Part shown: positions 8,232 through 39,457 of the stretch, piece after piece
Layout: each line of letters begins with the position of its first letter
Numbering within the stretch: the first letter of the stretch is position 1
The notes under the pieces: model-generated
What the model was told of the DNA's origin: nothing
Databases searched by the model: none
The model's input: only the letters and a program-made list of their open reading frames with translations
Origin: Blasia pusilla
Taxonomy: Eukaryota
Assembly: GCA_050084515.1 (NCBI GenBank)
Contig: CM114271.1
Span: forward strand, 35,216,001 to 35,280,000
Direction of reading: 5' to 3'
Length of the DNA stretch: 64,000 nucleotides
Translations under genes and position numbers: made by a program

Positions 8232-8429
8232 CTCCAATCGCCCTCCTAGCTAGTGATTAGGTCTCTCTAACTCCAGATAGCCATCTATCCCTATCTACCA
8301 CGATATACATCTCTACAACGCTAAGAGAAGAAAGGCTGGGTGCTCATGTGGCCCCATCGTTAGTCGCCTTCCTGTCATCCATGTCACAGAAAAAGTCGGG
8401 ATCAAAACCTACCTAGTATCTCCTCTACG

Positions 8430-11400
8430 TATATCTGAGACACATCTATCGTCCCTGAGGAACCCTAGTGAGAGGTGGCATCAGATATGCCATATGCCAA
8501 CCTCTTGAACATCCATCATAGACTAGCATCGTGGCCCTACCACGGCCAGAACCACACAACATACAATGCAAGCCTGTAGGAACTACTGCTAATCTTGGAT
8601 CTACTATACCATCAATGTTAGGAAGGTGACATGACGCACAATTACGCACATGGTCCTTCCATACCATATCATTATGTCCCTCCAACAAGAGAATACCGGA
8701 TGGTAAAACGTCACGCACTCTCAAGATAGTGCGTCCTGCAGTCACATCCAACGTCGTCGGTGCCGTCTGCTACAAGTAGACATAATCTTCTTGATGAAAC
8801 CTCCGGATAGTTGGTCGATAACCACCACCCCGAATAGTCGCATACCTCAACGTATCTCGATGTTGCGCAATCGCCAAGTTCTCAAATGCCATGGGCATCA
8901 CTCTCCTAAACAACTCTGCCCTTTGAGAACATGATCGCATCCATACATGTGAGTCATCAAGGTCCAGCATCTTGACGAATGGCCGCAGGTAAATCTGGCT
9001 CTCGGCCATAAATTAGCAAGTACGGTGAAAAAGACGCTAAGGATGCATGCCTGCTGAATCTGTATCCCATCGCCAACTATGGCAACTGGAGGTCCCAATC
9101 TCCTAGGTGACCTCTCTGCAAGCCATACTTGCGTAAACCCCTCTTCACTGTCTGCACAACTCTCTTCGCTAATCCATCTGCCTCGGGATGATCTCGCGAA
9201 GTCGTGCGGTGGTCGATCATCGCCTGATCACACAAGGCCTGGAACTCACCGCAAAATTGGATACCCTAGTTTGTCAACATCTCAGCCGGTACCCCATAAT
9301 GACTTAGCACTCTGTCAAGGAAGGCATAAGCTACTCCCTCACTCGCTCTGTCAGAAAATGCCACCAACTCGATCCACTTCGAGAAGTACTCGACCATCAC
9401 CAACACATAACGACTGTGACGCTCCGTCAAAGGCAAAGGTCCTACAAAATCCAAAATCCATCTATACCCTAAGCCCATGATCGGTTATGGATGAAATTGT
9501 GGAGTCGGAGCATTGAATGATGCTCGGACCCGATCACATACCATGCACCTGGCAACAAACTGCAGAACGTCAGTCTGCATGCCTCGCCACCAATACTAAA
9601 TCTGTATCAAGCTGTACGTCCGCTTCACCCCAAAGTGACCCAACTCCTCGTGGGCATGCTGCACTAGTCGTGTTCTCTGCAAAGGATGCGGCACTACGCG
9701 TACTATGCCATCCTCCCAAACCCTCAAAACATGTGTTCCCTCCCAACGGAACCGTCTGGCCCGTTGTAGGATCCGATCACGCTCTCTAGCACCCACGGTG
9801 CTCGCAACGCTGCCAGTACAAAGGTACTCCAAGACTACTCCATCATCATGACTATCCCAACCACCTGTCGTCTCCTCACTGGCCTCGAGATCCAAGGACT
9901 CTCCACTAGACCTCGCCATCGAAGTCTCCACACTTTGGCTCTCCATAGCCAACATGCCTAAATAGGCTGACGCATGCCATCCTGGCACTAACTCCTCATC
10001 ACTCTCTCCATGCCATAGAGCTCTAGTCGCATCTCGCTGACTCGGGCATGCGTTACGACTCAACCCATCTGCATCCTGGTTGAGTGTCCCAGGTCTATGT
10101 ACCACCTGAAAATCATACTCCTGCAACAACAGAGGCCATCTCGCAAGCTTCCTTGTAAGCTTGTTGGACTCCATCAACCACTTCAGTGGTTGATGATCAG
10201 TGATGATGCTAAAGGGGTTGCCGAATAAGTAACACCTGAAATGCGCGATAGCCCACACCGCAGCCAAGCACTCACCCTCATACGAGCTGTACTTTGCCTC
10301 TGCAGTGTTGTTCGAGAAGCTAGCGTAAGCCACCATGAACTCTCTACCCTCATCATCATGCTGGGTGAGCACCGCTCCAAGCCCCAACATGCTCCAATCT
10401 GTGTGCAACTGGAAAGGACGCCCCCTGATCGGTCTCCTCAAGATGGGTGTGGACGTCAACCTGTTCTTGAGCAATTGAAATGCTTGCTCCTGCTCATTCC
10501 CCCAATGCCACTCGTGATCCACCTTGGTCAGCAAGGTTAGCGGCTTCACAATAGAACTGAATCCCTTGACGTACCGCCGGTAGAAGTTCGCCAACCCCAT
10601 GAATGTGCGAACACGGCTCACATGTGTAGGGCGTGGAATGCGTGAGATAGCCTCTATCTTTGTCTGCTTAACACCAAGGCCCCCAAGGTATATCGTATGA
10701 CCTAAGTACTCAATCTGGTCGTAGAAGAACTTGCACTTGCCTGGATGTAGTTTTAGCCCATGTAATTGCAATCGTCCAAACACCTCCTCTAGATGTCGCT
10801 AAAGCTCCTCAACCGTGGCGCTAAAGACTACGATGTCATCAATATAACATCTAGCAAAATCTGGATGAGGCAAGATCCTATCCATCACCCTCTGAAACTC
10901 ACCCGAGGCGTTCTTTAACCCAAATGGTAAGGACCGCCACTAGTAAAAACAATCCTTCCCGTGAGGATCGATGCCCCAAAATGCCGTCTTCTACTTGTCC
11001 TCCAATCTGATAGGCAGTTGATGGTATCCGGCTCGCAAATCCAATGAAATGAAGACCTTTGCGTAACCAATTGGATCAAATATCTGATGAGGGGTGGGAT
11101 GGCATACCTATCGGACTTTGTCTGCCCATTGATAGGTCGATAATCCCCACCCATTTTCCCATCCGTCCAAGTGCCATGCACATCCTTCTTGGCGGGCATG
11201 ACAGTGGCAGATGCATACTCCCCATGCGACATCTCCACTAGTCCTGGTCCGACCAAGTCCTGGCTCCTACTCTAAATCAGAGCCCTCTCCATATCACTGT
11301 ACGTGTAGGATTGTCTGAAGATCGGCGTATCACTCGACAACTCAATGCGGATCCCTGGTCCCTTCAGCGTACCCAAATCCTCCATGCTAAATGCAAAGCA

Positions 11401-12600
11401 ACTCCAATAACTCATGAGGAACTGATGTATTCGGCGCCGCTCTCCTCTAGTCAACTTAGGGCCCATATGTGGCTCCCAAGTCTTCATCGTGACTACGGTA
11501 GGACTCTCCGGCCCGCATATTGGTTGCTGCTATGGTGCAACCCCGTCTCGAACAACAACACTCGGCCGCTCTTCTGCAGCCAACTGCAAACTCTGATCTC
11601 CTCCATGTGTAGTGCCCAAAACCACTCTCCATGCTGCGGCTATCATCTCTTGGCGTACCTGCAAAATACCCCAAGAAGTCCAAGGGTGTCTCTCCCAATC
11701 TCCCTTGGTGTGTAGATCTCCTCGAGTCTCACCCCAGCCACTGCCTCCACCGTCTCGTTAGGCATGGGGCTCATCAACGCAACCGCTGTGCTAATCCCTT
11801 CAAAGAGATCTAACACTCGAATATCCTCCTACGGGGTATACCACACAATGGGTGTGGTATCCAAGGGTGTCATCCTTGCACTCCCTGCTACCTCGGATTC
11901 CTCAGACCCATCACGCTCCACTGCAAACGCCTCGCTCCACGTGGTCTGCATGTGCTCATCTGCCAATCGTCGAAGCTCCTTAGTCGAGCCCCACAACGGC
12001 ACCTCTCCTCCACGGAATGATGCGGCTACCATAACACTCCTCTCCATAGAAATATCAGGAACGGGAATTTCCTCTGCATGGATATGTCCCTCAATCAAAT
12101 CACTAGGCCAAGTGATTGCACTGCTAAATGCTGCTAAGGTCGCCACCTCTCCTGGCCATCGCTCGATCACTGCACCTGTGAATCGAACGGGTAATGAGCT
12201 AAGGCGCCCATCACCTGACTGCCATCCTGATTTGTAGGATGCAGACTCCTCCTAGTAATCTAGGGAAAATCCCATTGGGTATAACACTGCTCCACCAACC
12301 AAGACGTCGTAGGATAGTGCATCAGCCACTATCGCCTTGGCTCGCACCACGGACTCATTTGTAGGATGTCTCGGGCGAATCCTCACCACAACCTCCTGTT
12401 GGGTGATATACTGTGTGGTACTGGCTCCACCCATGGATGTATGTATCCGAAATGGAAAACGCTCCACATCGGCTCTCGTCAAGCCCAATCCTCTGAATGA
12501 CGCTTTCCCCAACATCAGGGGTTGCGCTCCTGAATCCAACAAGACGCGCCACGGAGTAAAAGCTCTACCTCCAAGACTCACCAAGTGGAAGACCTCTCCT
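8430..12600 (-). pseudogene. Element 1 pol: PR - (DNMT motif I remnant) - RT - RNase H - IN - PHD, with stops and frameshifts
   Basis: ORF-track fragments 12252-12584, 11829-12170, 11272-11487, 10915-11256, 9596-10783, 9266-9478, 8770-9009 and 8446-8751. Confidence 0.9.
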
Positions 12601-13599: not shown

Positions 13600-15805
13600 C
13601 ACACCATAAACTAATGCGGGCCTACAATCTTTTACACGGATCTCTCGGGCCACAAAATGGAAGAACCTCTTGCATCCTTGAGAAGTATTTGTGGAGGATC
13701 ATCATCGTGGTTGGGAAATGGTAGTTCAGCTTTTGGCTCTTGTACACTAATCAGATCCACCTTGATACACCCTAGGGGAATCAATCTACCATGGTATTGA
13801 TCTCTTCTGCAATGCCAAATATTTGCCCTATTCCCACATGTTGCCATCCTTTGCGATTCTTTGAAAGAAAGACATGATCCCCTACTATCAACTGTATATA
13901 CAATCACATTAACAAAAATCATATTTCAGATATGAACTTATAAATTCTAAAAATACACATAAGCACATGTTCCAATCTTAGTTACCTTCTTAACGCTCCA
14001 ACCATTTTGAGGAATATTGCAAGAATATGTGGGAATCGTAAAATCACCTTCCAAGAATTTCTACAAATCCGATCCACTTTAAATCAATATATATGAAGAA
14101 CTTTGCTCATACAATGAAAGCACAAAAGGAAACAAAACATCATCAATTACTTACAATGTTCTTCTCTTTCCTCTCGTTGAGTGAAGGGTGCTTCTTTTTT
14201 ATCTTTATCTTGGAAGAGCTCCCTTTCCCAACATATGTTGGGTCTTCTTTATACCCATGCCAATAGGTCCCACTAGAACTCCAGAAGATAAGCCCTGAGA
14301 TTCTTTAGGCTTCTTGCTCTCTAAGATTTCTTCTTCCATGTTCTCAATCACTCCCATACCATGATTAGTTTTTGAATTATGAGAAGGTTGTACACCTAAC
14401 ATAGAATTTCCATCTTCATCCACGGTTAAATCTAACACTAGATTATCATTAAGTTTTGATACCATGGGTAAACTCTGATCCTTAAGAACAGATGGGAGAG
14501 AAGGTGTCGGAGTAGGAACTACCACACTTGGATCAAAATTTGTGGTTTCTTGAGGTACCACTTGAGTCATCTTGGATAACATAGCCATGATTTGGCCTAT
14601 GTTTTTCTTGATATCAATAATGTCTGACTTTGTGGATGCACCATCTTTCTCCATATTATCTATTCTGTGGCTTAAGGATATTGTTGCACTCTGTATCAAA
14701 GGGCATGTTCATCAACAAAAACAAGTTAGCTATTTGCAATAGCCTAGAACCAAGATACAATGATGAAAATATCATATTAGTGCAACTATAAGGAGAGTAG
14801 GACTACTATACTTTCCAGCAAACAAAAAATCAGATTGGTGCAACTGAAAGATACAAGATCAAGCAACACAAAAAAGATCCAAAGACAAGAAGAGAAATAT
14901 GAAAGATACCATGGATTTGCAATCTATTGTAGAGGGCTACTCTTATTAAGAAGGATGTCAATAATACCTTATTGCTGATACTTTGTTGGCTTGGATCCAC
15001 TTTAGGAGTGTTGAGGGACTCTTGCATCTCTTGTATTGTAGGAGAAGTTCCACGCTCCTTCTTCTACTTGACAATATCCAAAATTGAAAAACCAGAATCA
15101 AGATTTAGTCATATTCCAAGATGTAAGAACTCCCTATAAAACCTAAATTCTACCAATAAAGAAACTAGGAGGGCTCAATGGATAATAAACTTACAAAATT
15201 TTCTTTTGGCTCGAATATCCTCGTCTCCCATTAGAGTTGGGGTTTTCCACCTTAGATCTATTGGTCTTCATTCGTTCAGATTTCTGTTGTCCCGCGGGTG
15301 ACACCCAATACGACTTCAATGACTGCCATGTTTTTGGATTTACATCTGGAGGACAAGCGCATTCTTCGGATGCCCCTTTTTCTCTCCAATACTTTTTCAA
15401 GCCGGCCCGCTCTCGTTTCATCAGATCTTGGAGAGAAGTACGCCAAAACTTCTCACTCAACTCACCACCCACATACTCGTAATGATTGTCAATCTCTCTA
15501 CGGATGGTTCTCAAGTCTTGCTCGGCTTGTTTACTAACATCAACTATACTAAGGTCCAATTGGTGATGTACACTCGCCTTGACATCATCATGCCATTGGC
15601 TCTTTCCTTCACAACCATAAACAATCTCACCATTTTCTGTCACCTCTATTGTAGGTTTTAGCCCTGCGTGTTCACGAATCGAGTTGGTTGCTTTCCACTT
15701 CTCATAAACTTCTTTGCGGCACATACTCTTAAGAGATGAATCCATCAAAAAATATGTAGTCAAAGTAAGAAAAAAAAACCAAGTTTCACCATGGAAAAAA
15801 ACCAT
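13600..15805 (-). mobile_element. CACTA/En-Spm second-gene (TnpA/Ptta-like) exons, degenerate
   Basis: ORF 15191-15805 contains CPPDVNPKTWQSLKSYWVSPAGQQKSERMKTNRSKVENPNSNGRRGY, typical of plant Ptta/En/Spm proteins. It lies on the same strand as, and downstream of, the CACTA transposase at 28132-31889. Boundaries approximate. Confidence 0.65.
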
Positions 15806-16468
15806 AATTGATAAAACCTGGATGTAATGTCATTTTTCTAATTACCCTACATAGAATTTTAACTTACCAAGTGGATTTTTCTGGTCTTTCCACTCATACG
15901 AAACTTCTATTGGAGTTGTTGATGGTGGTACATAAAAACCATGTGTAGGATGGTGTGGATAAAAGGTCACAGGTGGGACCAACCTCGAGGCATTGAACCT
16001 GCAAAAAAACAAGAGAGCTAATTGCTGAAGAACATATAGCAATGAACTACCATTACGACGATGAAAAAAGAGGAAAAAAATCCTTTGTGAACTAGCATAA
16101 GAACTTAGACCTAAGGATTGAACTTGAAAAGCTAAGCTCCAACCAGGTAATGAAGATGGCCATTGGGATGGCATTTGAAATCCTTGATGATAGCCATGCA
16201 TTGGCCAAGGGTATGCAACATTAGAGCAGGATCCTTGGTTGTCCTTTGATTTCTTTGCCGGACTGTTGCCCTACATAAGACACATATTCAACATGTGTAC
16301 ATACCCAATCAATTTATCAACAAAACCTGATAGGACTATTCCACTCACAGTTTGTTTTGGAAAGCTTACTAACTGAATATTAGACTATGCATTATAATTG
16401 TCGTGCGCCTACTCTCCTTGAACGTTAATCTTGTTTGTTGCGGAAGCGTGCGTTCAGTAGGTCACGCT

Positions 16469-16836
16469 TGTCATGACCATACGGATTATGTCGTAGAGTA
16501 TGGTGTGCTGGTAGAGGCCATTCCTTATGTAGGACCGTAGTGGCTTGGTAGAGATGCGGTTCCATACATAGGGTTGGGGGTTACTCACTTGGGGGTGACT
16601 TTCCCCATAGGGCCCGCTCTTAGGTTGGAGGATATAAGGTGGCTTGCCCTCAAAGAACAGTCAGTTCTTTGAGTTGAGCCTATTGCGTTGGGAGTTAGCC
16701 TTGGTAGTGAGTAGAGCTCTTGGCTATGGTGTTTCCCGCAAGCTTCGACCTAGATTCTCCCATTGTGGAGTGGGTTTGGCTCGATTGTATGTGATTGTAA
16801 ACGTGTTTTATGATAGTAGGTCTTTCACGGATTTCA
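16469..16836 (+). repeat. A1 repeat of element 2
   Basis: Nearly identical to 25729-26066, which lacks ~32 bp near its start. Followed by internal sequence CTCAAAGAAC, not by B. Confidence 0.9.
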
Positions 16837-18559
16837 CTCAAAGAACTGGAGTAGATCGATGGTAGCTTCGATTGTAGATCAGTAGGATCTGGTTAGGGCT
16901 GATTTTGTACTCATCCGTGGATGTTCGCGGCTTGTTGCCTATGTTGGAGGTGTGAATCAGGTACGTGGTTGGTTGGGAAAGAAGCGCCTTGCTGAGAGCT
17001 TTCCAACGCGCTATAGATCGCCGGATTTCGTCAAGGGAGTTGGAATTTATCAAGCATTGAAGATTCTGGTTCGTGTTAAGCGGTTTTTACGATGTGGAGA
17101 GCTTGGAGTGCGGAAGCTCATGAAGTTCATCCAGATCGGGTGAGAGGTTCCTATTGCTACTTGTATTGTGATCTCATGTGAAGCTATCTGCTGGAGTGCG
17201 TGGAGCGTTGGATTTCTCGTGCATGAAACTTGGCGGAAGCGCTAGCCGGATTTGCGGTTCTAGAGGTGTATGGACAAAGCAAGTTTGTCTGATTTTTAGC
17301 ACGGAGTCACGGAGCTCGGTTGTAGCTGAGTTTTTGTGGGGAGATAGCTATGGTGGTCAATTGAATTCTGATCGAAACAGATTTGATTTCGGTCACGTAT
17401 TTGTGAAGTAATTTCTGATCAAAATTTCGCGGACTAGCTCAAGGTCTGGCTATGGTGGACAGCGGATCGGAGGGGCTGGTTGGTTGGTGACTCGTTCATT
17501 TTTGGAGACGCCTATCCCGTTGGGGGCGCCCTGGTTGGACCTCTCTCCATAGCGAAGCATGGCGAAGCATGGCGAACGGGGCATGTCTCGGCGTTTCGAG
17601 GCTTCGAGGCTTCGAGGCAACTCGTGGTAGCTCGGGGCGAGTGGGCGTGAGAGGCGGAGTAAGGAGCAAGGAGCAAGCAAGCAAGCTTGCTTGCTTGGGC
17701 GTGAGGCAATTTTTGCAGGATTTGGGATTTGAGTTTTGCATAACTGGTCACCCATCTTTGGGCTATTCTGCCTGGAGGACGCTTAATTGCCGAGTTCTTA
17801 ACTATGCCGGTGTCATGGTTGTTGTAGCTCATTTGGTCTTTGTTCGGAGATGTGTTAGGCGCTTTATGCATCTCAGGTTTTTGGTTGATGTACCTCTAGC
17901 GCATAGTACGGTGTAGCCTCTCCATGCGGTGATATTTTCAGGTCTTTGCGCGTTCGACTAGCACGCGTCATCGACCCGCGGCGGAGTAGCTATTGCGTTA
18001 GAATTGTGTGGTGGGTTTTGTGGATTCAGAGGGCACCACGCGTTTGGTGGATTTTGTTACCTTGATTTCCATTTGCGATTGGAGGGTTGTCGTTGGATTT
18101 CCTATGTTTGAATCCCCTCCATCGTGCTTTTTTGCTTGCGCCCATTGTTAGGGTTGACGCTGATTTCGAGTAGTGTTACTCTGTGTGCTACCGGTAGTGA
18201 GGTGGAGGGATGACGAGTAGATTGTGGGAGACTTCTTGTGGTGATGACAAGTTAGGTTGCCTACACCCATAACTAGTAGAGCTAGAATAGTATAGCGACA
18301 TCGACGTCACTTGGTAATTTGGTGGTGGTGCGGCATCGGCGTTGGTCATCACGGAGCTGTCGGGTGGTCTCGTTGGGGACCGTGGTGCGGACAGTGGTGG
18401 TTTCACACGGAGTGGATTTAGGTATCGGCTACCTTTTCCACTTCCGACGGTTGATGAAGAGGAGGACGAGGGTGTTCCAAACACCGAGTCTTCTACGTTA
18501 TTATCGAGTGTTGCAGCTCTATTGATTTGGGACATGGACGGTGGATATGGGGCCATGAA

Positions 18560-19700
18560 GGGGCCCACGACGATACTCGGGTGCAGTGGGTACCATTGAG
18601 TTTGAGGACTTCATGCAGGAGTTTGATACGTGGTGTGATATGCAGATGTTGCGGAACGCCACGTTGTTTACACCCTTCTTGGCTTGGAAGGGTTGTTTCA
18701 AAGACTTGGAAGGACCACCCATGGATGATTACCATGAGTTTAGGAAGGACCATGTTGCTGAGATTGAGGCATGGAGACAATATTGGTCTCCAGGCTATGT
18801 GTCTATCACCCATGGTGGTATTGGTAGTAGTGCTCCTACTATGCCCCAGCCCGACGCCTGAGTGGGCAGTACGAGGAGTGGGGGTACTAGTGGAGGTACT
18901 AGTGGGGGTACTAGTGCCCCACCATCGTTTAGCCTTGTTGCAGAGTTCTTCAAGAGGTTGAAGAAGAACTATCAGGAGTGAAGACGGAGAAGTTGAGGAA
19001 TCTTCAGGACTTTGAGCGAAAAGACTGGTGAGAGTCTTCGTGAGGCATACACGCGTATGTGACGCTTGATTTCAGATTACCAGTGTGTGACCGAGGATCA
19101 GCATTCGATTTTGGTATGGGATCTTGGACAGAGATTTGCGCCGTAGGGCGTGATGCTACTCTTATGAGTGATGATTCACCCACATTGACCCATGTGTTTG
19201 CTCTATCCGAGAAGATTGAGCTTAACATGGTGAAGGAGAGAGTGGTGACATCCGCATTCAGTGAGGGATACAACTACTACTTCGTGTTCAACCGCCCACC
19301 TCACGAGTCTCGTAGTAGTGGTGGTGGTAGTAGTAGAAGTGGGAGTCGTGGGGTACACGCGACCTCGTCAAGTCCTAGAGGGACATTTGTGCAGAGACCA
19401 TTGCCTTCTTCATTTTGCCCGGCAGGGCGATCATGTTGGACATGTGGAGGTGATCATGTTAGGAAGTTTTGTCCCCAAGAGGATGGGAGACGGACTTTGG
19501 AGGATGGGCCTCGGTCGGCCCCAACTCGGTGTGATCATTGCGGGAGACTAGGTCATCCTCGAGAGCGTTGCTTTGATCTTCATCCGAGTTGAGATCACGC
19601 CGTGGCCGTGGTGGAGTAGCTCCGAGAGGCCGAGGTGGTAGAGGTGGTAGGGGTGGTAGAGGTGGACCAGTGGTTGGAGAGCCTATGGTGGCTACCCCTA
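18560..19700 (+). pseudogene. gag of element 2 (frameshifted), with two CCHC zinc knuckles
   Basis: CWTCGGDHVRKFC and CDHCGRLGHPRERC in ORF 19059-19592, followed by an RGG-rich tail. Start approximate. Confidence 0.8.
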
Positions 19701-20329
19701 CCACTACGACAGTCAACTATGGCTGCAGTGAGCGATTGGAGCAGAGTTGGCTACTATGGTGGTATCCAAAGATAGATCGGGTTCGGGAGCAGGGGCTTCC
19801 ACCTCTTATGGAGGGGATGATTTCTCTTATATGGCAAGTGCCGCCAAAGTTGAGGCATCACTGCGATTCTGAGAAGAGCCACTCGGCCAGAGCCACGTGG
19901 TGCTCTTGTGGAGTTGGACCCATAGAGGGGTGAGGGTGGGGCTAGGCTTCCCCAATCATTCTTGTTGTCCGAGGTGCTTAGGACTCCATCCATGGTTCCT
20001 CGTTAGCCTATTGAGCCGACAATGGGGATCGAGGCATCTACATCGCGTGTAGTAGACACGGATCAAAGATCAATGCGATGTGCGGATGGCAGCACGGTGT
20101 TGGGATCCCCATTGTTTTCGCCACGGAGTGATGGCTTTAGGAGTTGACTTAGCTCCTGTATTTGATTAGTAGCGACCACGTTGTGTGAACGTGGGGGTGT
20201 TCTTGCTACACGTGTTGAGGTGGATGAGGGTGTTGCGGTGGAGCGACCCTCTATGTCGAGTAGCATTGAGTACCGGTGCTACTTGGCAGGTGCAATGGCG
20301 AAGATGGATGCATTACCGGCCCGCCAGAC

Positions 20330-20800
20330 CATTGATCGTGAGAGGCTTACACCTGGTGTATGTATGTTGGACAACCGGAGTGGGATCTTCCGATTGGTGA
20401 GTCCCTACAGACAGGTGTATAGACCAGATAGAGTCTTGTTAGACTCGGTGCCCAACCTTGATGTTGGGAAAGCGGCATGTATTGGTTTGGGTATTCGGAG
20501 GTCGGACCTTGAGCCTTGCCCATTCCGATTCAAACATCACTTGGAGGAGCCAATGATAGGTCTCAATTCATGACATGGGAGAATTTTTCATGACAGTTGA
20601 GACCAGATCATGCGACCGATAGCTCCCGGTTGGGAATATCTGCGGTAGTCACATCACCGAGTCGTATGATGTACTAGTTGGAGGAGAAGATTGATTGTAC
20701 CCGATGGGTTTTCAGATGGATTCTTGGGTCGAGACAGCGTCTTATAGACCAGGTTGGCGATCGAGGGATGGACGTATGAGCCAAGTTCTGTGAGATTTAT
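20330..20800 (+). pseudogene. Aspartic protease of element 2
   Basis: RVLLDS(G/V)... and YDVLVGG motifs, colinear with element 1 ORF 12252-12584. Confidence 0.8.
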
Positions 20801-21160
20801 TTCGGGGCTCGACCAGGAGGATCTTCCCCAAGAGTGTTAGCATCTGTGGGTGGTTTTAGTGGAGTAGTCACTTGGCCAGAGACTTTTTGGAGGGTAATGT
20901 TTACGCTATGGATTCTCTGCGCATGAGGAGGAAGAGGAGGTCCCTATTTTTGCAGCATGGCATCCTCATCGTTGGATGTGCCACTTTGGAGTTCAGCGGT
21001 GCACTACGGCAGAGGCGTCGCCTAGTGTGAGGAGGCTTGGTGTGAGGTGTTATACCTCACGAGGAAGAGGAGGCCCACGGCGGACTCCTACTTACAGCAT
21101 TTTGATTAGGTTATCCCCTTTGGATACTACACCCATTGTATGGCAAAGTATCCGCCGGAG

Positions 21161-22110
21161 GGCATTTGTGTGTTAGATCTCTTTGGTGGGATTAGCACTT
21201 TGGTTTGGTCTGCATGTTGCGGCCGGTATTCTGTCTTGCGGAGATACGTATATGTGGAGCGAGATGAGACGGCCGAGAGAGTCTCATCCCGACATATGGT
21301 CGATTGATGCGAGATATCTGAGTTGTTGCCGCCATCGGCTATTCGTGGGTACCAGCGTGCTTTACCATCACACATTGCATTGTTGGGGCGCAGGACCTTG
21401 AGAGAATTGGTCCTGTGGATTTGGTGATTCTTTGGATGGCCATGTCGGGTCATACACGTCTTTGGTCGTGGTGAGGGATTACATGACCCTAGGTCTCGAT
21501 TGTTTTGGGAGATGTTACGGGTGTTACGACATCTTCACGTTCATCGCACACGTGCTCTAGCTTACATTCTGGAGAATGTTCCATTGTTGGGTGACACTCG
21601 GACCGGATGATGGCGAGTGTTCATGAGGTGCGGTCTTGGATTGAACCAGCGGTGTTGTTGGATGCTGGATGAAGTTGGCTCAGCGTGCACATCGTCCACA
21701 CTTGTGGTGGACAAACTTGTTGCCTAGGAGGTTCTCGTCGAGCATATGATGCGAAGGTGGGATCCTCGCCTTATAGTGGATAGTATCTTGAATCTTTGGC
21801 GACTTTCTCAAGTGGTGAGGGTTATTGATCGGTCACCCATGGCAGTGGTGAACCGTGTGGGCCAACCTAGGATGGCACTACCCACATTTGTGAGTTTTCC
21901 GCGTCACATGCCTACGAGGGAAGGTGGTCCGGGGCTTGTATGGGATTCTCATGCGGCAGTTGGTGGAGCCTAACGCTGATGAGAGAGCGTGCGATGGGAT
22001 TTACTCTTTGGCGTGGCATGACGGTTGCTTCTATTTACGAGGCTTCACGACGTCATGTGTTGGGTCAGGCCATGGACCTGAATTGTTTGATTTGGATTTT
22101 GAGTCTTGGT
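21161..22110 (+). pseudogene. DNMT3-like C5 cytosine DNA methyltransferase domain inside pol (frameshifted in this assembly)
   Basis: Motifs in canonical order: I GICVLDLFGGIST (21161); II RYVYVERDETA; IV GPVDLVI.GWPC (PC at ~21440) then GEGLHDPRSRLFWEMLRVL; VI YILENV (21563-21580); VIII VLLDA...AHRPHLWWTNL (~21652-21719); IX EPNADERE.AMGF (~21966); X RRHVLGQAMDLNCL (~22048). Confidence 0.88.
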
Positions 22111-22459
22111 ATGGCGAAATCGGCGTCGACTTTTGTGGGTCTTCCACCCCTTGTAATGAGCTCGATGGCTACCGGGACGGTAGAGGCATCGGCTAGGGGC
22201 GAGGAGAGTAGTATTTTGCATCCTTGGAGTAAATAGGATGTAATGGTGGGCATGTGGAGTTGGTTGCTCATCTTTGGTGGAGGAGTTATTTGCTCGATGA
22301 TGATGGTGTAGCTAAGGGTGTATCATCTTGTGAGGGGGTTGCGTGCGACCAATGGCATCGTCCTCTCCCTCTAGTATGCCAATGGAGGAGACTTGGGAGC
22401 CATTACTTGGGCCCAAGCTACGGGAGGTGAGAAACGACGCTGACACGGTTCCTACGTGC

Positions 22460-23830
22460 TTATAGGAGTTGTTTTGCCTTTAGCATGAAGGAGTTGGGTT
22501 CTCTGGTTGGACCCGGTATACGGATTGATTTGGCTAGTGATACGCCAATCTTCCGTCGTCCCTACCGATATAGTGATATGGAGAGGGACCTGATTGAGTA
22601 GGACGTTGGACCTTTTGGAGGCTGGATTAGTGGAGTTGTCGCATGGAGAGTATGCATCGCCTTTGTCATGCTGCTAAAAAAGGATATGCATGGCAACTAC
22701 ACGGATAGGCGGATGTGTGGAGATTACCGTCCTATCAATCGGCAAACCAAGGCCGATAGGTATGCCATGCCTACACTTGAGGAGATCTTTGATGTGGTGG
22801 GACAGGCAAAGATTTTCAAGTACTTTGATCTTGAGCGAGGATACCATCAATTGCCAATTCGAGAGTGACAAGGCCAAGACAAAGCATTTTGGGGTGTCAA
22901 CTCTCATGGCAAGGATTGTTTGTACCAAAGTGGAAATTCTTACCCTTTGGGTTGAAGAATGCACTGCTGAGTTTCAAAGAGTGATGGACAGGATCCTAGC
23001 AGGTTGGATTTTGTTTGGTGTTACATTGATGATATCTTGGTGTTCAAGAACACGGTGGAGGAGCATCGATACATTTGCAGATGGTGTTTGAGCGGTTGAA
23101 AGCTCATGGTCTACGTTTGCATCCAGGAAAGTGTAAGTTCTTCCATGAGGATGTTGAGTACTTGGGTCATGTGATCTATCCGGTGGTTTGGGAGTTCAAA
23201 GCAAGCAAAGGTGGAGGCTATTGCACTTATTCGCGTCCGATAGATGTGAGTAGAGTTCGAGCATTCATGGGATTGGCGAACCATGTCGGAGGTATGTGAA
23301 GGGATTTAGTGCTATGGCAAAGCCTTTGAACCAATTGCTGAAATCAGATCAAGAGTGGCATTGGGGAGATGATCGGGAGAGAGCTTTTGTGGAGCTTAAG
23401 GCCCGGTTGGTGGCGGCGCCTATCTTGAGGAGACTGTCGAGGGCGCCCATTTCGATTACACACTCGATTGGAGTAGGTTGGGACTTGAGCGGTGTTGACA
23501 CAACATGATGATGAGCACATGGAGTTTGTGGTGGCCTATGCAAGTCATTCGAATAATGCAATGGAGTCGCGCTATAGTTCATATGAGGGAGAGTGCTTGG
23601 CAAGAGTGTGGGTGGCACACTTTAGGTGTTACTTGTTTGGCACACAATTTACCCTTGTATCGATCACCGTCGCTCAAGTGGTTGATGGAGTCGGACAAGC
23701 TTACAGGGAAGCTTGCACGGTGGGCTCTTATCTTACAGAGTATGACTTCCAGGTGGTACATAGACCTGGAGTTGCCAACCTTGATCTTGATGGGTTGAGT
23801 AGGAACCCATGTACTAGCCAAGAGGATACA
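22460..23830 (+). pseudogene. Reverse transcriptase and RNase H of element 2
   Basis: RMCGDYRPINRQT, GYHQLPI, YIDDI, LHPGKCKF, EYLGHVI, VVAYAS, SYEGECLA, RWAL...YDFQVVHRPG. Confidence 0.92.
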
Positions 23831-24169
23831 ATCGGGGCTAGATGGCATGGCGAGGTTGATGAGGAGATGGTGCCAGGTTGGCATGCATCCGCCTTTTATG
23901 TTGGTTAGGGATGGACTCTAGTATGGAGGACCACATGATATCTTACTCTAGTTAGAGGGTAGATGGCCAGCCTTCAGATCCTAAGGTTGGAGATGGTGGT
24001 ACGGATCAGCGTGATATTCATGATGATGCGTTGGTGTTGGAGTTCCTACGGACCAGTAGGGTGCCAGGCATAGTGAGTGCAAGGAGCGAGACCGTGTTCT
24101 TTATCGTGCTAAGAGGTATCGATTGAGGGAACACATATTCTCCGCGTGTGGGAGGATGGTAGAGTACGA

Positions 24170-25445
24170 GTAGTGCCACATTTGGCTCGAGAGAGCGCAT
24201 TTTGCGACATGCCCATGAGGAGTTGGGACATTTTGGGGTAAAGCGACGTATAGCTTACTCCTTGGCGATATTGGTGGCGTGGCATGCATACTCAGTGCGG
24301 CAGATTGGTGTCATGTTGTATGGTTTGTGACCGGGTGAGGGCATCATTTAATGCCCCTACACCACAATTACACCCTTGCCTATTATGGGGTTGGGTTACC
24401 GTTGGAGTGTGGACTTTTGCGGGACCGTTACCGTTGGATGCACGACATCATCGATATGTGTTGGTGATGGTGGAGCACTTCTCCAAGTGGATTGAGTTGG
24501 TGGCATTACCGGACAAGGCAAGTGAGGGAACGGCGTATGCGTTTCTGGATAGAGTGCTTAGTCATTTTGGTGCACCAGCTGAAGTGCTGACCGACCAGGG
24601 TACAGAGTTTCAGGGTGAGTTTCAGGTCTTGTGTGACAAGGCGTTGATTGATCATCGGACCACGTCTCGAGATCATCCAGAGGCGGATGGTTTGGCTGAG
24701 CGTGTGGTTCAGACGGTGAAGAGGGCATTGCGCAAGTATGGCCCTCTGAAGGGCATCTTGAGACCAGGATATTCAGTTGCCATGGTTAGCCATGGGGTAT
24801 AGGTTCAGTCGCCAAGCATCCTTGGCTTCCTTCTCACCTTATTTTCTGTTATACGGCCGAGATCCAGACTTGCCAGCAGCAATTCGTCGGGAGTCTAGTG
24901 AGGTGGTGAACCTTGATGACCCAGAGATGTGGATGAGGGTGTGTTCTCAGCGGGCGGAGCTCTTTCGGAGAGTTATGCCAATAGCCTTTGAGAATCTTGC
25001 CATTGCTCAACACAGGATACGTTGCGGTATGCAACCATTTGGGGTGGAGGTTATCAACCATCGATTCATAGGTTCCATGTGGGGACTATATCTATTTGCA
25101 GCAGATTGCCCGACAACGTTGGATGTGACGGCAGCGCACTATTTTTTACGAGTGCGTGAGGTGTTAGCTTCTGGAGTTCTCATGTTGGAGGGTCGTGATG
25201 GAGTTGTTTGGAAGGACCATGTGCGTAATTGTGCGCCATGTCATCTTCCAAATGTGGATGGTACTGTTGACCCAAGCTTAGCCATGATACGTGCTAGCTT
25301 GAGGTGCATGTTGTGTGGGTCTCTTGCTGTAACGCAGCCCGTATGTTGGTGTGTGATCGGTGTTCTAGGGGTTGGCACATGATGTGTTTGACTCCACGTT
25401 TGGATGTTGTTCCTCTTTGGAAGGTGGGTTTGTCCTCGATGTACT
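24170..25445 (+). pseudogene. DDE integrase with C-terminal PHD finger (element 2)
   Basis: HHCC (HAHEELGHFG...CMVC); D-D-E core (DFAGP, LTDQGTEF, DGLAERVV); terminal CMLC...CDRC...WHMMC...CPRC at ~25303-25442. Confidence 0.9.
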
Positions 25446-25622
25446 TAGGAGAGGTAGATGACTTGATCTTTGCATGATATGGATTACTGGATGTGCGACT
25501 AACGATGGGGCAACCTAGCACCCGGCCTTCGATTTGGGCACCCAAGAAGGTGTATAGCATGTAGTAGATGTATAGGGGCTACCCGGGAGTTAGAGGACCT
25601 AACCGCCTTGATTAGGGGGCGA

Positions 25623-26172
25623 GTTGTGGTACACTTGCATTTGTGGATACTCGTCTATGTTATGTATGTATGTGCGTATGGTATGTCAGCGATGTATGTT
25701 GTATGACGATGTGGATTCGCACGACAGCTGTCATGCTGGTAGAGGCCATTCCTTATGTAGGACCGTAGTGGCTTGGTAGAGATGCGGTTCCATACATAGG
25801 GTTGGGGGTTACTCACTTGGGGTGACTTTCCCCATAGGGCCCGCTCTTAGGTTGGAGGATATAAGGTGGCTTGCCCTCAAAGAACAAATCAATTCTTTGA
25901 GTTGAGCACATTATGCGTTGGGAGTTAGCCTTGGTAGTGAGTAGAGCTCTTGGCTATGGTGTTTCCCGCAAGCTTCGACCTAGATTCTCCCATCGTGGAG
26001 TGGGTTTGGCTCGATTGTATATGATTGTAAACGTGTTTTATGATAGTAGGTCTTTCACGGATTTCAGTTGTGGTACACTTGCGTTTGTGGATACTCTCGT
26101 CTATGTTATGTATGTATGTGCGTATGGTATGTCAACGATGTATGTTGTATGACGATGTGGATTCGCACGACA
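25623..26172 (+). repeat. 3' terminal block of element 2: B1 (25623-25726), GC, A2 (25729-26066), B2 (26067-26172)
   Basis: B1 and B2 are near-identical (GTTGTGGTACACTTGC...GATTCGCACGACA). The junction GCACGACA-GC-TGTCATGC is a near-perfect palindrome. Confidence 0.92.
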
Positions 26173-28131
26173 CGCTCTCAACGCTGATCTGCATCCAAAC
26201 ACGCACTCTGGTTAGTCGGGTCTTGGATCAATCAGCGGGCTAACTTTCCGAGTTCTTGTCTCAGACTCTCATCAAGCTTAACCTTCCTAGTTTCGCGGTT
26301 TACAACATGGGCAAATCTCGAAAGACTTGGGACAGACTATCTGCTCGGTTCAGGAAACCTAAACGGCGTTTCGCGCCTGGCGGTTCCAACTGTCCTATGG
26401 ACATCCAATGAGTTCCTCACCAAAACTTGCACGAAGTGAATCTCGGGTTGGGATCCAAGTGTGGCGTATAAATTCCACTCCCTTGGATCAGGATTGGGTT
26501 TCGAGTTCCAACGCCAAACTCCCGTTCCATCCCGTGCCTCTGAAACGCCGTTTGGCGCCCAAAGTGGGGATTCGTATTCCGAGACATCTTAGAGAGACTC
26601 CTCCCTTACTAGTACTTCAAGGGATCTCCGGGGGCCCCCTACATTTAGGGAAAGACACCCGGGCCTCTCCAATTGGCCCTCAACCCGATTGCTCTCTCAA
26701 TCATTTTTGGCCGATATCTCAGCCTGTACTTTTGCGTTTGCTAAGATCTTTGGTGCGTTGGAAGCATCTCAAGATCAGCTTTCTAACTCACCCTTACTTG
26801 TCTTGAACGCATCTTGGAGCTCAACGTTATGGTCCTAAACACAATCAGATTCTCCCAAACGCTAGTCGTGTTTCAAACTGGTTCTCACCTCTTTGGCAAC
26901 CAACCTCCCAAGACTCAACTCATCTCAAGTCTTGTCTTGCGTTTGGTCTAGGTTTCCTGGTCGCAACCACTAACGCATGAAATGCACAACTCTGTGCTGC
27001 GTTTCGTCTCTTAGACTTTTCCAAGAGACCTTTTCCAAACACCACTCCAAAGCGCAAACCTCGCAGCGTGAGTTCACTTGAGTTTTGATGTTTCGCTTGG
27101 CGCCTATTTGGTGTTGTTTGGTTATGAGGGTCGTGAAAATAATCTAGATAAGCATGAAATGAAAAAGGTAAGGATAAGGATAGAATCTAACTTTTTGTTC
27201 TCCATGTTTAGGACGGCTGTTGATCTTGAATGGAAACTTCGAGGTGCTTTCTCTAAGAAATTGTGAAGGCTCTGGACTTGATTGCTCCAGATTAACATCA
27301 AATTTGGGATGTGACTCCAAAGCATCACTATTGAATTTTTCCTCGTCATGTGAAGAGCGTAGCTTGGTCGTCCATCTTCAATTTATAGCATCGTTGACGA
27401 GTAAGATGTACTTTGGGCGTGGATGGTTGTTGTGTCTTTCTAGTATGCTCTCTCGGTACCTTAGCTATGCGTGATTCCTCTGGAAAAACTGACCTACAAA
27501 CCAGCATGTAACATAATAATATGTAAGTTCCATACAAGTTACGGAATATGACCTCAAAGTACACCTCTGTATAATATCTTCCACATCTCTTCAAAGCAAG
27601 GATCTTTAAGAGCCTTAATTGGAAATTGGAAAATATGAGGAAGAGCAAAGATGGCCATTGAGAAGCAAGGAGACGTATTGCTGCCCTCACTCTTGCACGA
27701 CGCTCCTCTCGTAATCTGAAATACTCTGTGTTCGCCTCCTTTGTGGATAGTTTTGTCCCTACATCAACAAGCGGAACTCCTTTTTCCGAAGTCGTTAGGG
27801 TAACTCCACTATTAGATTGAAAATGGTTTTTGGACTCTTGAATCTGCATCCTGAAATCAAACACATATTGCAAAACCAAGGAATGTATTTAGCCACAAAT
27901 CTTTGGCACAGTCAAAGATGTGCCAATGTCTTGAGTTTAACATTTTACAAGTTAAACACTCTCTGATTGGCATAATCAGACCTTGCACCAGATTTGGAAC
28001 TTTCATAAAATAAAAAAATTGTAACAAAAAGTGTCCAAATAGGAATCAACACACTATTGCAATACCTGGATATTACATTGAAGTCCATTACAATAGCTTT
28101 TCATTACTCCTCTATTACAAAGTAGTACACC

Positions 28132-31100
28132 TTACTCACTATCAGAACTAGTCCTCATTTCACAACTATCTTTGGAACTTTCACCATGTTCTTCATCGGG
28201 TACAAACTCTATTGTTGCTAAAGCTAATTCTGCATCGGATAGGTGGATGGCACCAAGCAATGAGATGTCTTGCACTTCATTGTCCAAGTGTGATTGTGCC
28301 CTCAAGTCTCCCAAGTTGATATGATCAGTAATACAAATGTCTGGTCTACCCCCCTACAACTCTTCTAGAACGGGTTTCTTTTTGCATAAATACCTTCCAA
28401 CCTATACGTTCCTCAACTGGAGCATAGAATACATGTTCAACTTGGCTGGGAAAAACAAAGGGATCTGAATTAAGTGGTAGTAGTTTTCTGAAATCTACTA
28501 GGAGAAACCCATTTTCATCATGCATCATTGTAGCATCAATCCCATTCCATGAGGATTTTACCCACTTGCCTCTCATAAGAACTATATGCTCATCCAATGT
28601 GCCATAATCTAATTGCAAAATATCTACTAGAATGCCAACATAAGGGATTTGGCTAAGATGATTCACTTGGTTAGCTGTTTGTGAAAGAAATATACTTGTT
28701 ATACCTGAGTTGTATGTAGAGAATGAACTATCGTCATCCACCCTAAAGTGATTTCCATATGCTTTCATTTTCTTAAAAGAGAGGTATGAAAGTGATGGAG
28801 GCACTGAAAACTTCAAGACTAATTCATCAAGCTGGTTTCCTTTAGCATTTTCTTCTCTAATTTTAAGACGTATCCACTCAGCAAATGTGTATTCACACTC
28901 GCCAGAAAGTCTATAAATTCTACACAACAAAAGTACATCAGAATCTGATATTTGTGAGACCAATGATACAATAGTAGCAATGGCAAAGTTAAGACCTAAA
29001 ATCAAGGTTGGACCAATGGCTTACTTACTTGATTCAGCTAGTGAAACACTCACTATTTTCCAATACATATTGATGGACCACAACTGCCATTTCAGCTGTT
29101 AACTGGCGCTTAGTGCCTACTCCTTCCAAAACCTCACCGATAATACCTTCCTCCTCAGAAGCATCCCAAATCCTAGTTTGCACCACTGTGTAATCTTGCA
29201 TGTACTCTATGGTGAATCCTACAGCTTCATCAAGGATACACCCTTCAGCCATACATCCCTCAAGTTGAGCTCGAGATTGCACATAACCTTTTAGAACTCC
29301 CAAGTATCGTTCTATCGTATACATCCCATCGACAACCAACTAGACCTTATATGTCAATCTCTTCCACCAAGTGTACCATAGGTGAGTCATGACATCAAAG
29401 AAAGATGGGGGGAAGTGTACTTCCATGAGGCACAAGGTAGTTGCCACATCCTCTTTCAATGAAGCAAAATAGGCTGGATTCCAAGTTTTCACACAAAGCT
29501 TCCAAAATACTCATGACATACGCATTACTACCATTCTCACAGGACCCTTCAAGAGACCCCATAAGAAATAAAGGCATCAATTGTTGCATGAATACATGCA
29601 GGTCATGAGACTTCAAGCTACCTAATTTCTTGCATAAGAGGTGCTTCTGTAATGCACCTGCATACCCACTCGGAACCTTAAGTGCTTCTACCCTTAAGTG
29701 GAAGACTTTTATTTCCTCAAGACTCAACACATAGTCTGCTCTGGGTTTGAACTTAGCCCCATCTCTCTTAGGATGGGCTTGCAACCAAAAATGTTTTCGA
29801 ATACCTCTTACCTCCATGTCTTGCCTTACCTGTATAGAGTCCTTCTTCTTAGAACCAAAAGGGTCTTAAGGGTATTATCAGCAACATTCTTTTCACGATG
29901 CATCACGTCCAAAATATGCCAAATTAGTAAGCCTTGGAAAAAGCCAACACACAAAGAGAGATTAGTTGAGAGGAAGTCTAAAAAATACAAGGATAAATAT
30001 TTAATCGGGTTACATAATAAAGTAAGCCTTTGAAAATAAGATACTATTTGAAGATGAACAATAATTTGAAAGGTGAGAACCTGGAAAATATTGGTTGTAA
30101 GATATTACCTTCCAATAAGGCAGGTCAAATAGTATGCTCCGTCGTGAAACTCCAGTTTGCTTGTAGGGATCAATACGCATCGGTACACCTCTCCTTGGCG
30201 GTGCCTTGGGTTCACTATAATAAACTCTTTTCAATTCAGCCTACTCAAGTATCTCATCACTTCATACCCACCTTGGTATTTCTCGGGTCTCCACTTTACA
30301 ATCAAAATGATGGGCCACTTGGCGCATCCTATATGGGTGATTTCTCTCCTTCTAACGCCGATGGCCTTGAAATGCAGTTTTGTGCAATGGTTTGGAGTAG
30401 TGTGAATCCACATTAGGTCCACACACTACACACCCCAACTTGCCTTTTTGTGGCTTGGCCAAAGACAATACCCAAACCTTGGTAGTCAATTATGGTCCAT
30501 ATGACCATTGCTCGAAGCTAGAACTTAGCAATGCCTTCTACACTACTACTCTCAAAAGCTGTGACCCCTTTCCAAAGTATTTGCAACTCCTCAACAAGTG
30601 GAGCTAAGTATATATCTAGATTTTTAGAAGTCATTGATTCCTTCCCCGGAATTATAAGAGCCAATTGGAGAAATAACTTTTTAGTACATAACCAAGGGGG
30701 TAAGTTATAATTGACCAAAAGCACTGGCCAAGTAGACCACACATTTTTTTTCACTAAATGGATTGACCCCATCTAATGCCAAACCAAGCCTACAATTTCT
30801 GGGCTCATTCATGAACTCTGGCCATTGAAGATCAATTTCTCTCCATTGCTTAGAATCCCCAGTGTGCCTCACCAATCCATCTGTACTCTTGTTCTTGGAT
30901 GTCCATGTCATAAGTTCAGCAATGGATGTACATCTATACATACGCTTCAACCTTGGAATAATAGGGAAGTGTCGTAACACCTTCATGGGCACTTTACCCT
31001 TCCCCATTTGCTTATACCTTTGTGACATGCACTTGGAACATGTGTCCAAATCCTTGTGAGCACCTCGAAACAACATGCAACCATTTGGACACTCATGAAT

Positions 31101-31889
31101 CTGAATGTAATTCAGTCCAAGCTTTGTGACAAGTTTTTTGCTTGCATAATGGTTTTTAGGGATATGGTTGTCATCAGGTAGGACTTGTAAGCTAAATAAT
31201 TTCAAGAACTCATCAACATCCACATTTGGGATGTTATGAGCTCCACAAATATTCAGAAAAACCATTGTGAATGTTAGTTTACTAATCCTACTTCCAGGGA
31301 CCTAAGGGCAACATGCTTCTCTCAATGCTGCCCAATCTTCCTCACCACATCCTAATCCAGAATCTTCGTCTCCTATCTCAAAAGGACTATCATCAACATC
31401 TTCTTGTGGAGCCCTTTGATCCTAAGCAAAGGGTTCCTCATTGTCTCTCTGGTCAAATCTATGAAAGGCTTCATTGATCATTCTATGAACATTTATATCT
31501 TCATCAATGTCTGTCACACCTAACGTAGGATTTCTTATATTACATTCAATCCCTTTGGTAGGACTGTCCACATGCACAATTCTATTTTCAGATCTTGACC
31601 TCCACTCATCATCTGATGAATTATACTCATCAGTATTTCTCAAAATTCTTTTTGAAGGAAACGTATTATACATAATGAGATGTTTCTCTATGACATGCAA
31701 AACACTCAATTTCATCTCTTTGCATTCATTACATGGACATCTAAGCTTCTTCAACCCTAAGTTCCTTGCTGTCTCTTTTTCTCTTCGCCACAACTCTTCA
31801 TCATGTGATGCAATTTGTTGTGGGTGATCAAGATTCAACTTTGGGTTGGTCTCATGATGCTGCTCACAAATTCTTCCTGCGGCTTGCAT
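28132..31889 (-). mobile_element. CACTA (En/Spm) TnpD-type transposase pseudogene
   Basis: LRCPCNECK; IHECPNGCMLFRG...VLRHFPIIPRLKRMY; RNCRLGLALDGVNPF; STWPVLLVNYNLPPWLC; LKSHDLHVFMQQL; MYTIERYLGVLKGYV; DPFVFPSQVEHVFY. Confidence 0.92.
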
Positions 31890-32570
31890 TCTTTTTTGTT
31901 TGAGGTATCCTTAACTAGAAAGGTAATGTACCTGCTTGTGATGATTACCAAATTATGATAATACTTTTTGAAGCATTTTCTCACGTTGACTGTCCCTTTC
32001 TTGAAGTCCACTACTTGAACTTGTTCTACCCATAATCAGCCCCAAGGAAAGTTTCCAACAACACCCGACATGAACACACATTAAATGAGATAATAAGATT
32101 AAACAAAATGCTATGATTGCTCCGTATGTTATCCACAATATGGAAGGGATCAACGAGTGAAATCTTGGGAGGCACAAGTGGGAAGAGAAGAGAACTTACG
32201 AGTCCATCAATTTGAACAACAAGATAGAAGGAGTGATATGGTAAAAAGACGGTAGCCTTCTACTACATATGGGTAGATTATGCAGAGGCAAGAGAGAGAA
32301 ACACAATAGGTTGGAATTACCCTAACAACTAAGCAATAGAGACGAATTCTAAGGAATTGAGGAGAGAGGCACTTTTGCAAATTTTCAACAAGAGGAAAGT
32401 GCAGGTCAGAGTGCATGTCAGAGGAGACAAAAATAGTGCCCAAAGTATTTTACGAGTTCAACTTGTGAGAAATCCACTACTAATCTTCACCTTAGATAAA
32501 AAATACATGGAATCATCGAAGTACCAAGTGAGACCAATTTGAAAGAAGATAAGCCAAAAAATCTATAGAG

Positions 32571-32688
<118 letters not shown>

Positions 32689-39177: not shown

Positions 39178-39457
<280 letters not shown>

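Follow-up and report, generated by a model that had tools for sequence, protein, structure and literature searches.

How does a retrotransposon with a DDE integrase come to carry split direct repeats, an arrangement that textbooks pair with tyrosine recombinases, complete pairs of long terminal repeats (LTRs) going with DDE integrases? The question is raised by a 64,000-nt stretch of the genome of the liverwort Blasia pusilla (the window; assembly GCA_050084515.1, contig CM114271.1, positions 35,216,001 to 35,280,000 of the forward strand), in which an element that we call E1 occupies positions 16469-26172 of the plus strand, counted from the first letter of the window. E1, which is decayed and dead, belongs to a very abundant family of Ty3/Gypsy-type retrotransposons; a repeat search and blastn gave for it the order A1, internal region, B1, GC, A2, B2. 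Copies of this kind of element were surveyed in the 64-kb window, in 80 metagenome loci (34-77% protein identity) and in one Illumina read set.

All features of E1 lie on the plus strand. The 5' repeat A1 (16469-16836) begins with TGTCATG and contains a TATA-like box (16633-16637). The 3' end consists of B1 (25622/3-25726), a GC spacer (25727-25728), A2 (25729-26066) and B2 (26066/7-26172), the last ending in ...CGCACGACA, and the whole unit is bracketed by a CGCT target-site duplication (16465-16468 on the left, 26173-26176 on the right). Read from the outside, the left side is CGCT, TGTCATG...(A1)...GGATTTCA, then CTCAAAGAACTG and the internal region, and the right side is AGGGGGCGA, GTTGTGG...(B1)...CGCACGACA-GC-TGTCATG...(A2)...GGATTTCA, GTTGTGG...(B2)...CGCACGACA, CGCT. 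The two A repeats are 97% identical over 334 aligned nucleotides and the two B repeats 96% over 107; 30 nt of A1 (16476-16505), present in most copies of the family, are missing from A2 near its start (at 25735). The termini of E1, TGTC...GACA, are of the TG...CA type. Where B1 is followed by A2, the end of B, the 2-bp spacer and the start of A make up the palindrome GACA-GC-TGTC (25723-25732), which is the two integrated termini abutted. The other joint, between A2 and B2, is neither TG/CA nor a palindrome; it fuses the end of the region that precedes the primer-binding site (PBS) to the start of the region that follows the polypurine tract (PPT).

The coding content was determined by Pfam searches of stop-to-stop frames and of read-through frames in which stops were replaced by X. 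RVT_1, RT_RNaseH/RT_RNaseH_2, Integrase_H2C2 and rve follow each other in the sequence, which is the Gypsy order of pol domains: reverse transcriptase (RT; 22430-23300, in several frames, RVT_1), Gypsy-type RNase H (23250-23910; RT_RNaseH, E = 7e-13) and an integrase (24160-24800) made up of an H2C2 zinc finger, recognized in the translation, and a DDE core (rve, E = 9e-14, 24254-24799). Farther upstream are a gag-like region with broken frames (18560-19592), which had no Pfam match and in which a CX2CX4HX4C zinc knuckle was found by eye near 19450-19490, and a frameshifted C5 cytosine DNA methyltransferase (DNMT) domain (21110-21610; PF00145, DNA_methylase, E = 3e-5 at 21428-21607, an upstream motif being recognized by eye). 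A PHD finger (25331-25405; PF00628, E = 1.4e-5) stands at the C-terminal end of pol. Besides the Gypsy domains, DNA_methylase and PHD, no Pfam family was found in the three plus frames of E1, and none at all in the minus frames. With E values up to 0.01 accepted, none of the six read-through frames had a Pfam match to a tyrosine recombinase (Phage_integrase), though divergent recombinases can escape such a search. Many indels break the reading frames of E1, and several of them, 1-2 nt long, depart from the family majority seen in the reads. The coding strand (16000-26000) is rich in G and T, with a GC skew of +0.22 to +0.28 and an AT skew of -0.10 to -0.17.

Raw reads carrying the same species label (Illumina run X18, of which about 1 in 100 was read) were placed on positions 25300-26500. 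The read depth summed over E1 was roughly 800-1,800, hence the family must be very abundant. At 26171 there were 781 loose read ends, whose consensus is the left flank of E1; these reads join the left flank to 26173 onward and represent the uninterrupted, empty target site, and therefore fix both termini of E1 together with the duplication. Another 640 loose ends, at 26066, run on into CTCAAAGAACTGGAG..., which is the A/internal joint of 5' ends. The A/B, B-GC-A and A/internal joints were each spanned by reads at depths of several hundred, and the B-GC-A reads mostly had the 30 nt that A2 of E1 lacks (197 joint reads and 473 loose ends). Relative to the internal region, the depth was about 1.5x over the 3' part of A and about 1.7x over B1 plus B2; these ratios are a rough sign, compatible with many copies carrying A2-B2, and do not amount to a copy count. 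E1 itself was inserted into another highly repeated sequence (flanks 16380-16468 and 26173-26500), the depth of which was about 500-1300. The initial annotation had read from the letters a split-repeat unit with a CGCT duplication, a Gypsy-type DDE integrase and no visible tyrosine recombinase. The coordinates of the unit hold to within 1 nt, its empty site is present in the reads, and the Pfam searches agree with both statements about the proteins.

The window contains parts of a second family with a different A sequence (A'). Its 3' end, E2 (7422-8247, minus strand), shows a PPT-like run (8247-8238), B1' (about 8231-8111), GC (8110-8109), A2' (8108-7541) and B2' (7540-7422). The adjoining internal region (8332-11867, minus strand), truncated on its 5' side, contains a DNMT fragment, RT, RNase H and integrase, and includes an intact 400-aa frame (9599-10798, minus strand) that matches RT_RNaseH and Integrase_H2C2; the E2 region, on the other strand than E1, has base skews of the opposite sign. 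Two 5' ends of the same family are E3 (517-1832, minus strand; A' at 1832-1327, PBS AAAGAGAGAATGAG at 1326-1313, complement at 1504-1491) and E4 (55675-56971, plus strand; A' at 55675-56168, PBS at 56169-56182, complement at 56011-56024). Both begin with TGTCAC, and in both A' passes directly into internal sequence with no B. The second family with the same 3' end (8231-7422), and the 5' ends at 1832 and 55675 with A and without B, had been noticed before and taken to mean a lineage trait rather than a one-off duplication. That conclusion stands, because many metagenome relatives share the layout as well.

Among the metagenome loci, L052 is complete and has the same layout (A1 at 1679-2017, B1 at 10238-10350, GC, A2, and B2 to 10805), flanked by the duplication AAGG, and so is L070, with a GT spacer and the duplication AGAA (L071 is the same element in another sample). 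B1/B2 pairs stand in the expected place in L009, L031, L032, L033, L040, L066, L068, L075 and L079, and B-GC-A is present in L018 and L059. Besides L052 and L070, the split layout occurs in at least nine further independent 3' ends. The spacer at the junction is GC in E1, E2, L052, L018, L033, L059, L079 and L074, AC in L009, AT in L031 and GT in L070; B measures 58-122 bp and A 283-567 bp. None of the 43 metagenome loci examined had a canonical AB...AB pair, and B was found upstream of A in none of 12 independent 5' ends. Five of the six complete copies are flanked by a perfect 4-bp duplication (CGCT in E1, AAGG in L052, AGAA in L070, TACA in L008, TGTG in L014); in the sixth, L042, it reads GGTA/AGTA, with three of four positions equal.

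Terminal repeats were not seen in the more distant loci L043, L055, L060 and L064, which must be old, since their single-frame matches contain 13-21 in-frame stops each. Single-frame matches with 9-21 in-frame stops and no frameshifts were obtained for several loci (L043, L060, L070, L014 and others). Decay of these copies was mostly by substitutions, whereas indels dominate in E1; it is possible that deamination of methylated cytosines was the cause. The contigs L074 and L076 contain the same sequence of about 13.6 kb, circularly permuted in one relative to the other, which has a 2106-aa frame and a single GACAGCTGTC behind a PPT-like run. We did not count them as evidence for real circles, since collapsed repeats assemble identically.

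With the 400-aa frame of E2 as query, the best protein matches were from Calypogeia fissa (67%) and Marchantia polymorpha, the Marchantia proteins P0008 and P0010 carrying PF00145. Numerous unnamed proteins in which DNMT and PHD domains occur were next, ahead of Closterium and Klebsormidium (34-39% identity for the latter). In a quick tree the liverwort, Closterium, Klebsormidium and window elements formed one clade, separate from insect Gypsy, with 99% support in the Shimodaira-Hasegawa-like approximate likelihood-ratio test (SH-aLRT); the row L079_locus of this tree was disregarded, since it represents a different element, matched off target. E1 and the elements of Marchantia, Calypogeia, Closterium and Klebsormidium are probably members of one broad lineage.

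What distinguishes the place where A ends from the place where B begins? In all five 5' ends tested (E1, E3, E4, L052 and L070, which represent four different sequences) the 12-16 nt right after A are perfectly complementary to a stretch within A, located 125-178 nt before the end of A and just downstream of a TATA-like box. In E1 the predicted self-priming PBS is CTCAAAGAACTG (16837-16848), starting at the first base after A1, and its complement CAGTTCTTTGAG (16662-16673), 29 nt after TATAA, is predicted to be the first 12 nt of the transcript. Shuffled sequences reached the observed length of complementarity, 12 nt in the case of E1, in 0 of 2000 trials for each of the five ends. L074, which belongs to a distant, GC-rich family, has a 12-nt pair 211 nt apart in the same arrangement, the sole inverted pair of at least 11 nt in the 1160 nt scanned. 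In minimum-energy folds of the predicted leader, the 5' end pairs with the PBS in six of six copies (in E1 with 10 of 12 pairs, the input starting 2 nt late), and in the same proportion of copies (6/6) the end of A coincides exactly with the start of the self-priming site. Judged by this complementarity, the predicted site is of the Tf1 self-priming type. A tRNA-type PBS (TGGTAGC, about 16860) had been a candidate and was dropped in favour of the self-priming site, which follows A without a gap. At the other end of the internal region, a PPT-like run, AGGGGGCGA (25614-25622), stands directly before B1, and this G-rich run or a variant of it was found directly before B1 in 11 tabulated copies.

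The PBS and the PPT therefore bracket B-GC-A, not the integrated ends: with the PBS after A and the PPT before B, the terminal repeat produced by reverse transcription would be B-GC-A. The explanation that we favour, and hold to be rather probable as a whole, is that E1 belongs to a Gypsy element with a priming-defined B-GC-A repeat, the integrase of which opens the DNA at the internal palindrome, and the tips of which become joined. Transcription would start inside A1 and yield an RNA in which the repeated region R occurs twice, within A1 at one end and within A2 at the other, as predicted from the position of the TATA-like box and the PBS complement. Minus-strand synthesis from the site after A1 and plus-strand synthesis from the tract before B1 would then give a linear DNA with terminal repeats B-GC-A rather than A-B. 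The integrase would ignore the tips of this DNA and cut the internal palindrome; we assign it to internal sites because no insertion begins with B (0 of 12 5' ends). If the palindrome of the left repeat were cut and the two freed CA ends inserted, the product would be A-int-B-GC-A-B (int, internal region) flanked by a 4-bp duplication, and the A2/B2 joint would be the right tip joined to the left tip, an LTR-LTR joint formed as in a 2-LTR circle or through repair after integration. If the start of A on the left were used together with the end of B on the right, the product would be A-int-B, which lacks a 3' R and would be a dead end for replication.

The opening at the internal palindrome is a step that we infer, and the model as it stands would not predict its one-way outcome. 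A precedent for the cut itself may be seen in retroviruses: the integrase of the foamy virus PFV was reported to cleave 2-LTR circles at the palindrome where the two LTRs meet (PMC1180852), and the same cleavage was reported for HIV-1 integrase (PMC1905944). The initial annotation had suggested a non-canonical replication cycle. This is right in so far as some step must differ from that of a canonical LTR element; the priming signals, a self-priming PBS and a PPT, look ordinary, hence the unusual part is probably the choice of ends by the integrase and not reverse transcription itself.

Several points weigh against this explanation. Where transcription starts, where poly(A) is added and that the tips become joined were all deduced from sequence, E1 itself is dead, and in E2 the start of B is 7-8 nt after the G run instead of directly after it. 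A 2-LTR circle has two identical palindromes, and random opening would produce the mirror arrangement, A-B-GC-A-int-B, half the time; it was found in none of the 12 5' ends. The plain circle model is therefore incomplete, and we rejected random opening of a 2-LTR circle as the full explanation. One may speculate that the choice is biased by position, the left palindrome being, with B and A of the lengths given above, much nearer to an end of the linear DNA than the right one. It is equally a matter of speculation whether the GT-rich B2 acts as a downstream poly(A) element, which would make a poly(A) site of only the 3' copy of A.

The copies with a single B have to be considered here. Nine loci of the L052 family (L004, L006, L008, L010, L014, L034, L039, L042 and L051) have ends with one B and no A2-B2, and in three of them the A-int-B unit is complete and flanked by a duplication (TACA, TGTG and, with three of four positions equal, GGTA/AGTA). 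The A-int-B copies and the split-repeat copies of this young family are intermixed in the tree. It is possible, but unproven, that they are a second product of integration. Two facts detract from this interpretation: the metagenome assemblies that contain the A-int-B copies were built from short reads, and such assemblies can skip the B-A-B loop; and recombination between B1 and B2 could equally yield copies of this form.

The strongest competitor of the priming-defined B-GC-A repeat, unlikely in our judgement, is a DIRS/PAT-like regeneration of ends combined with a DDE integrase. The RNA would lack the outer parts of A1 and B2, a full-length cDNA would be made, the internal B1-A2 would serve as the template that restores the missing parts, and the integrase would trim at TG and CA; neither a B-GC-A repeat nor the joining of ends would be needed. 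The layout of E1 does equal that of the split-direct-repeat DIRS type, as described in a curation guide (PMC8969392) and in the legend to Fig. 1e of PMC5890265, and the tyrosine-recombinase elements that share it evidently need no canonical LTRs to replicate. However, such a mechanism leaves unexplained why A ends exactly at the self-priming PBS (6/6) and why B starts at the PPT. Because A ends at the PBS and B starts at the PPT, we regard A/B as the joint of primer-defined ends. The 4-bp target duplications and TG...CA ends also set the element apart from DIRS elements.

Much less probable still, and in our opinion very unlikely, is the insertion of a circular copy by a tyrosine recombinase that is cryptic in the element or that true DIRS elements provide in trans, the DDE integrase being a relic. 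The idea draws on the fact that split direct repeats are otherwise linked to tyrosine-recombinase elements. It is contradicted by the six read-through frames, in which only Gypsy-element Pfam families were found at E up to 0.01, by the conservation of the integrase, including its zinc finger, in the relatives, and by the 4-bp duplications of five of six complete copies and the exact empty site in the reads, whereas DIRS elements are described as lacking target duplications (PMC8969392). Finally, the decay of E1 and the many indels of the assembly relative to the reads could raise the suspicion that the window was misassembled, or that a Gypsy element of the usual form AB...AB was rearranged once it had been inserted, but this is scarcely credible given that the layout is repeated in E2, L052, L070 and the at least nine further independent 3' ends, that target duplications flank A1 and B2, that every junction is spanned by reads at depths of hundreds, and that none of the 43 loci is canonical.

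It is instructive to compare E1 with systems described previously. The initial annotation knew of no description of split repeats combined with Gypsy proteins; there is one, so that a first description cannot be claimed. KnitGypsy-Dnmt3 of Klebsormidium nitens, a Gypsy element, carries Dnmt3 within its pol, and the legend to Fig. 4c of the paper that reported it (de Mendoza et al. 2018, PMC5890265) mentions a DIRS-like repeat arrangement together with Gypsy domains. Like E1, it combines a C5 DNA methyltransferase within a Gypsy pol with DIRS-like repeats; it differs in its host, a charophyte alga versus a land plant, and the Klebsormidium proteins matched the E2 frame with no more than the 34-39% identity given above. 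The text of that paper, as distinct from its supplements, devotes one legend sentence to the arrangement, and in the parts of it available to us there is no mention of target duplications, priming sites, a junction palindrome or a mechanism. Klebsormidium proteins fall in the clade of the window elements (the 99% SH-aLRT clade of the quick tree), PF00145 was present in 0 of 3 of them, and KnitGypsy-Dnmt3 itself was compared by its description. In the titles, abstract openings and passages that the literature search covered, KnitGypsy occurred only in the original paper, and no other Gypsy element with split direct repeats was described. E1 adds a member from the liverwort side to a kind of element of which a single earlier case, an algal one, had been noted.

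The split-direct-repeat DIRS elements (PAT-like, Ngaro, SymbioDIRS-Dnmt3) share with E1 the order A1 - internal - B1 - A2 - B2, which is the common split-repeat form according to the curation guide, and a Gypsy-related RT/RNase H. They differ in having a tyrosine recombinase and, as far as the guide describes them (PMC8969392), no target duplication, whereas E1 encodes a DDE integrase, has TG...CA termini flanked by 4-bp duplications and contains a 2-bp spacer with which a palindrome is completed. In Tf1/sushi elements and plant Tcn1 the start of the transcript is complementary to a PBS directly after the 5' repeat, as is predicted for E1; both of their LTRs are complete and they carry a chromodomain, whereas in E1 the repeats are split and pol includes a DNMT and a PHD finger. 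In plants, self-priming was predicted for the Tcn1 and TAR lineages only, in the available text of Neumann et al. 2019 (PMC6317226). The likeness to retroviral 2-LTR circles is that a retroviral-type integrase would, as proposed for E1, cut an abutted CA..TG palindrome and generate two processed ends. The difference is that in the retroviral circles the palindrome is the joint of the LTR tips, whereas in E1 it lies inside the priming-defined repeat and the A/B tip joint is non-palindromic. Circle junctions of the IS3/IS30 type in bacteria, in which abutted ends 2-3 bp apart are the substrate of the transposase, are also similar; IS3 and IS30 are, however, DNA transposons, and their junction is formed by copy-out and without reverse transcription. 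As for the traits that characterize Ty3/Gypsy elements, E1 has the DDE integrase, the TG...CA termini, a short target duplication, a PBS after the 5' repeat and a PPT before the 3' repeat; in place of two complete identical LTRs it has A alone at the 5' end and B-GC-A-B at the 3' end.

The window has other features, which we list for completeness. A cytochrome P450 gene is represented by several exon-like frames at 3457-6088 of the minus strand (PF00067, E = 2e-64 on 3460-4137), and a 783-aa open frame at 45094-47445, also on the minus strand, had no Pfam match. Other mobile elements are a Copia-type element with RVT_2, rve and an SH3-like domain (61971-63816, minus strand), an N-terminal fragment of a Helitron helicase-like protein (54276-54833), a transposase region of the tnp2 family (Transposase_21) with DUF4216 (28346-31301) and a weak En/Spm-type match (15191-15829). 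These plant-type genes and transposons, together with the protein matches of E2, point to a land plant, most likely a liverwort, as the host and rule out a dinoflagellate, which the DNMT had at first suggested. A long dinucleotide array of the CT/GA type (39185-39457) has an inverted partial copy 6.5 kb away (32567-32688).

The lineage of E1, which is abundant and probably spread from algae to liverworts, breaks the textbook link between the repeat layout of a retroelement and its integration enzyme. There are practical consequences: LTR finders that need two full LTRs will miss or misclassify such elements, and short-read assemblies convert them to apparent circles or to copies without repeats. 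For the biology of the family, the anatomy offers a testable case of a retroviral-type integrase apparently acting on an internal palindrome and on a joined-end intermediate, and bears on the old question of LTR-LTR junctions as integration substrates. A more far-reaching possibility, which we put forward tentatively and think somewhat less probable than its opposite, is that a streptophyte Gypsy lineage moved the recognition site of its integrase from the tips of the reverse transcription product to an internal palindrome, the joined-tip product having become an obligatory, on-pathway substrate of integration. If this were true, the circle-junction route, long dismissed, would for the first time be the normal one in a retrotransposon.

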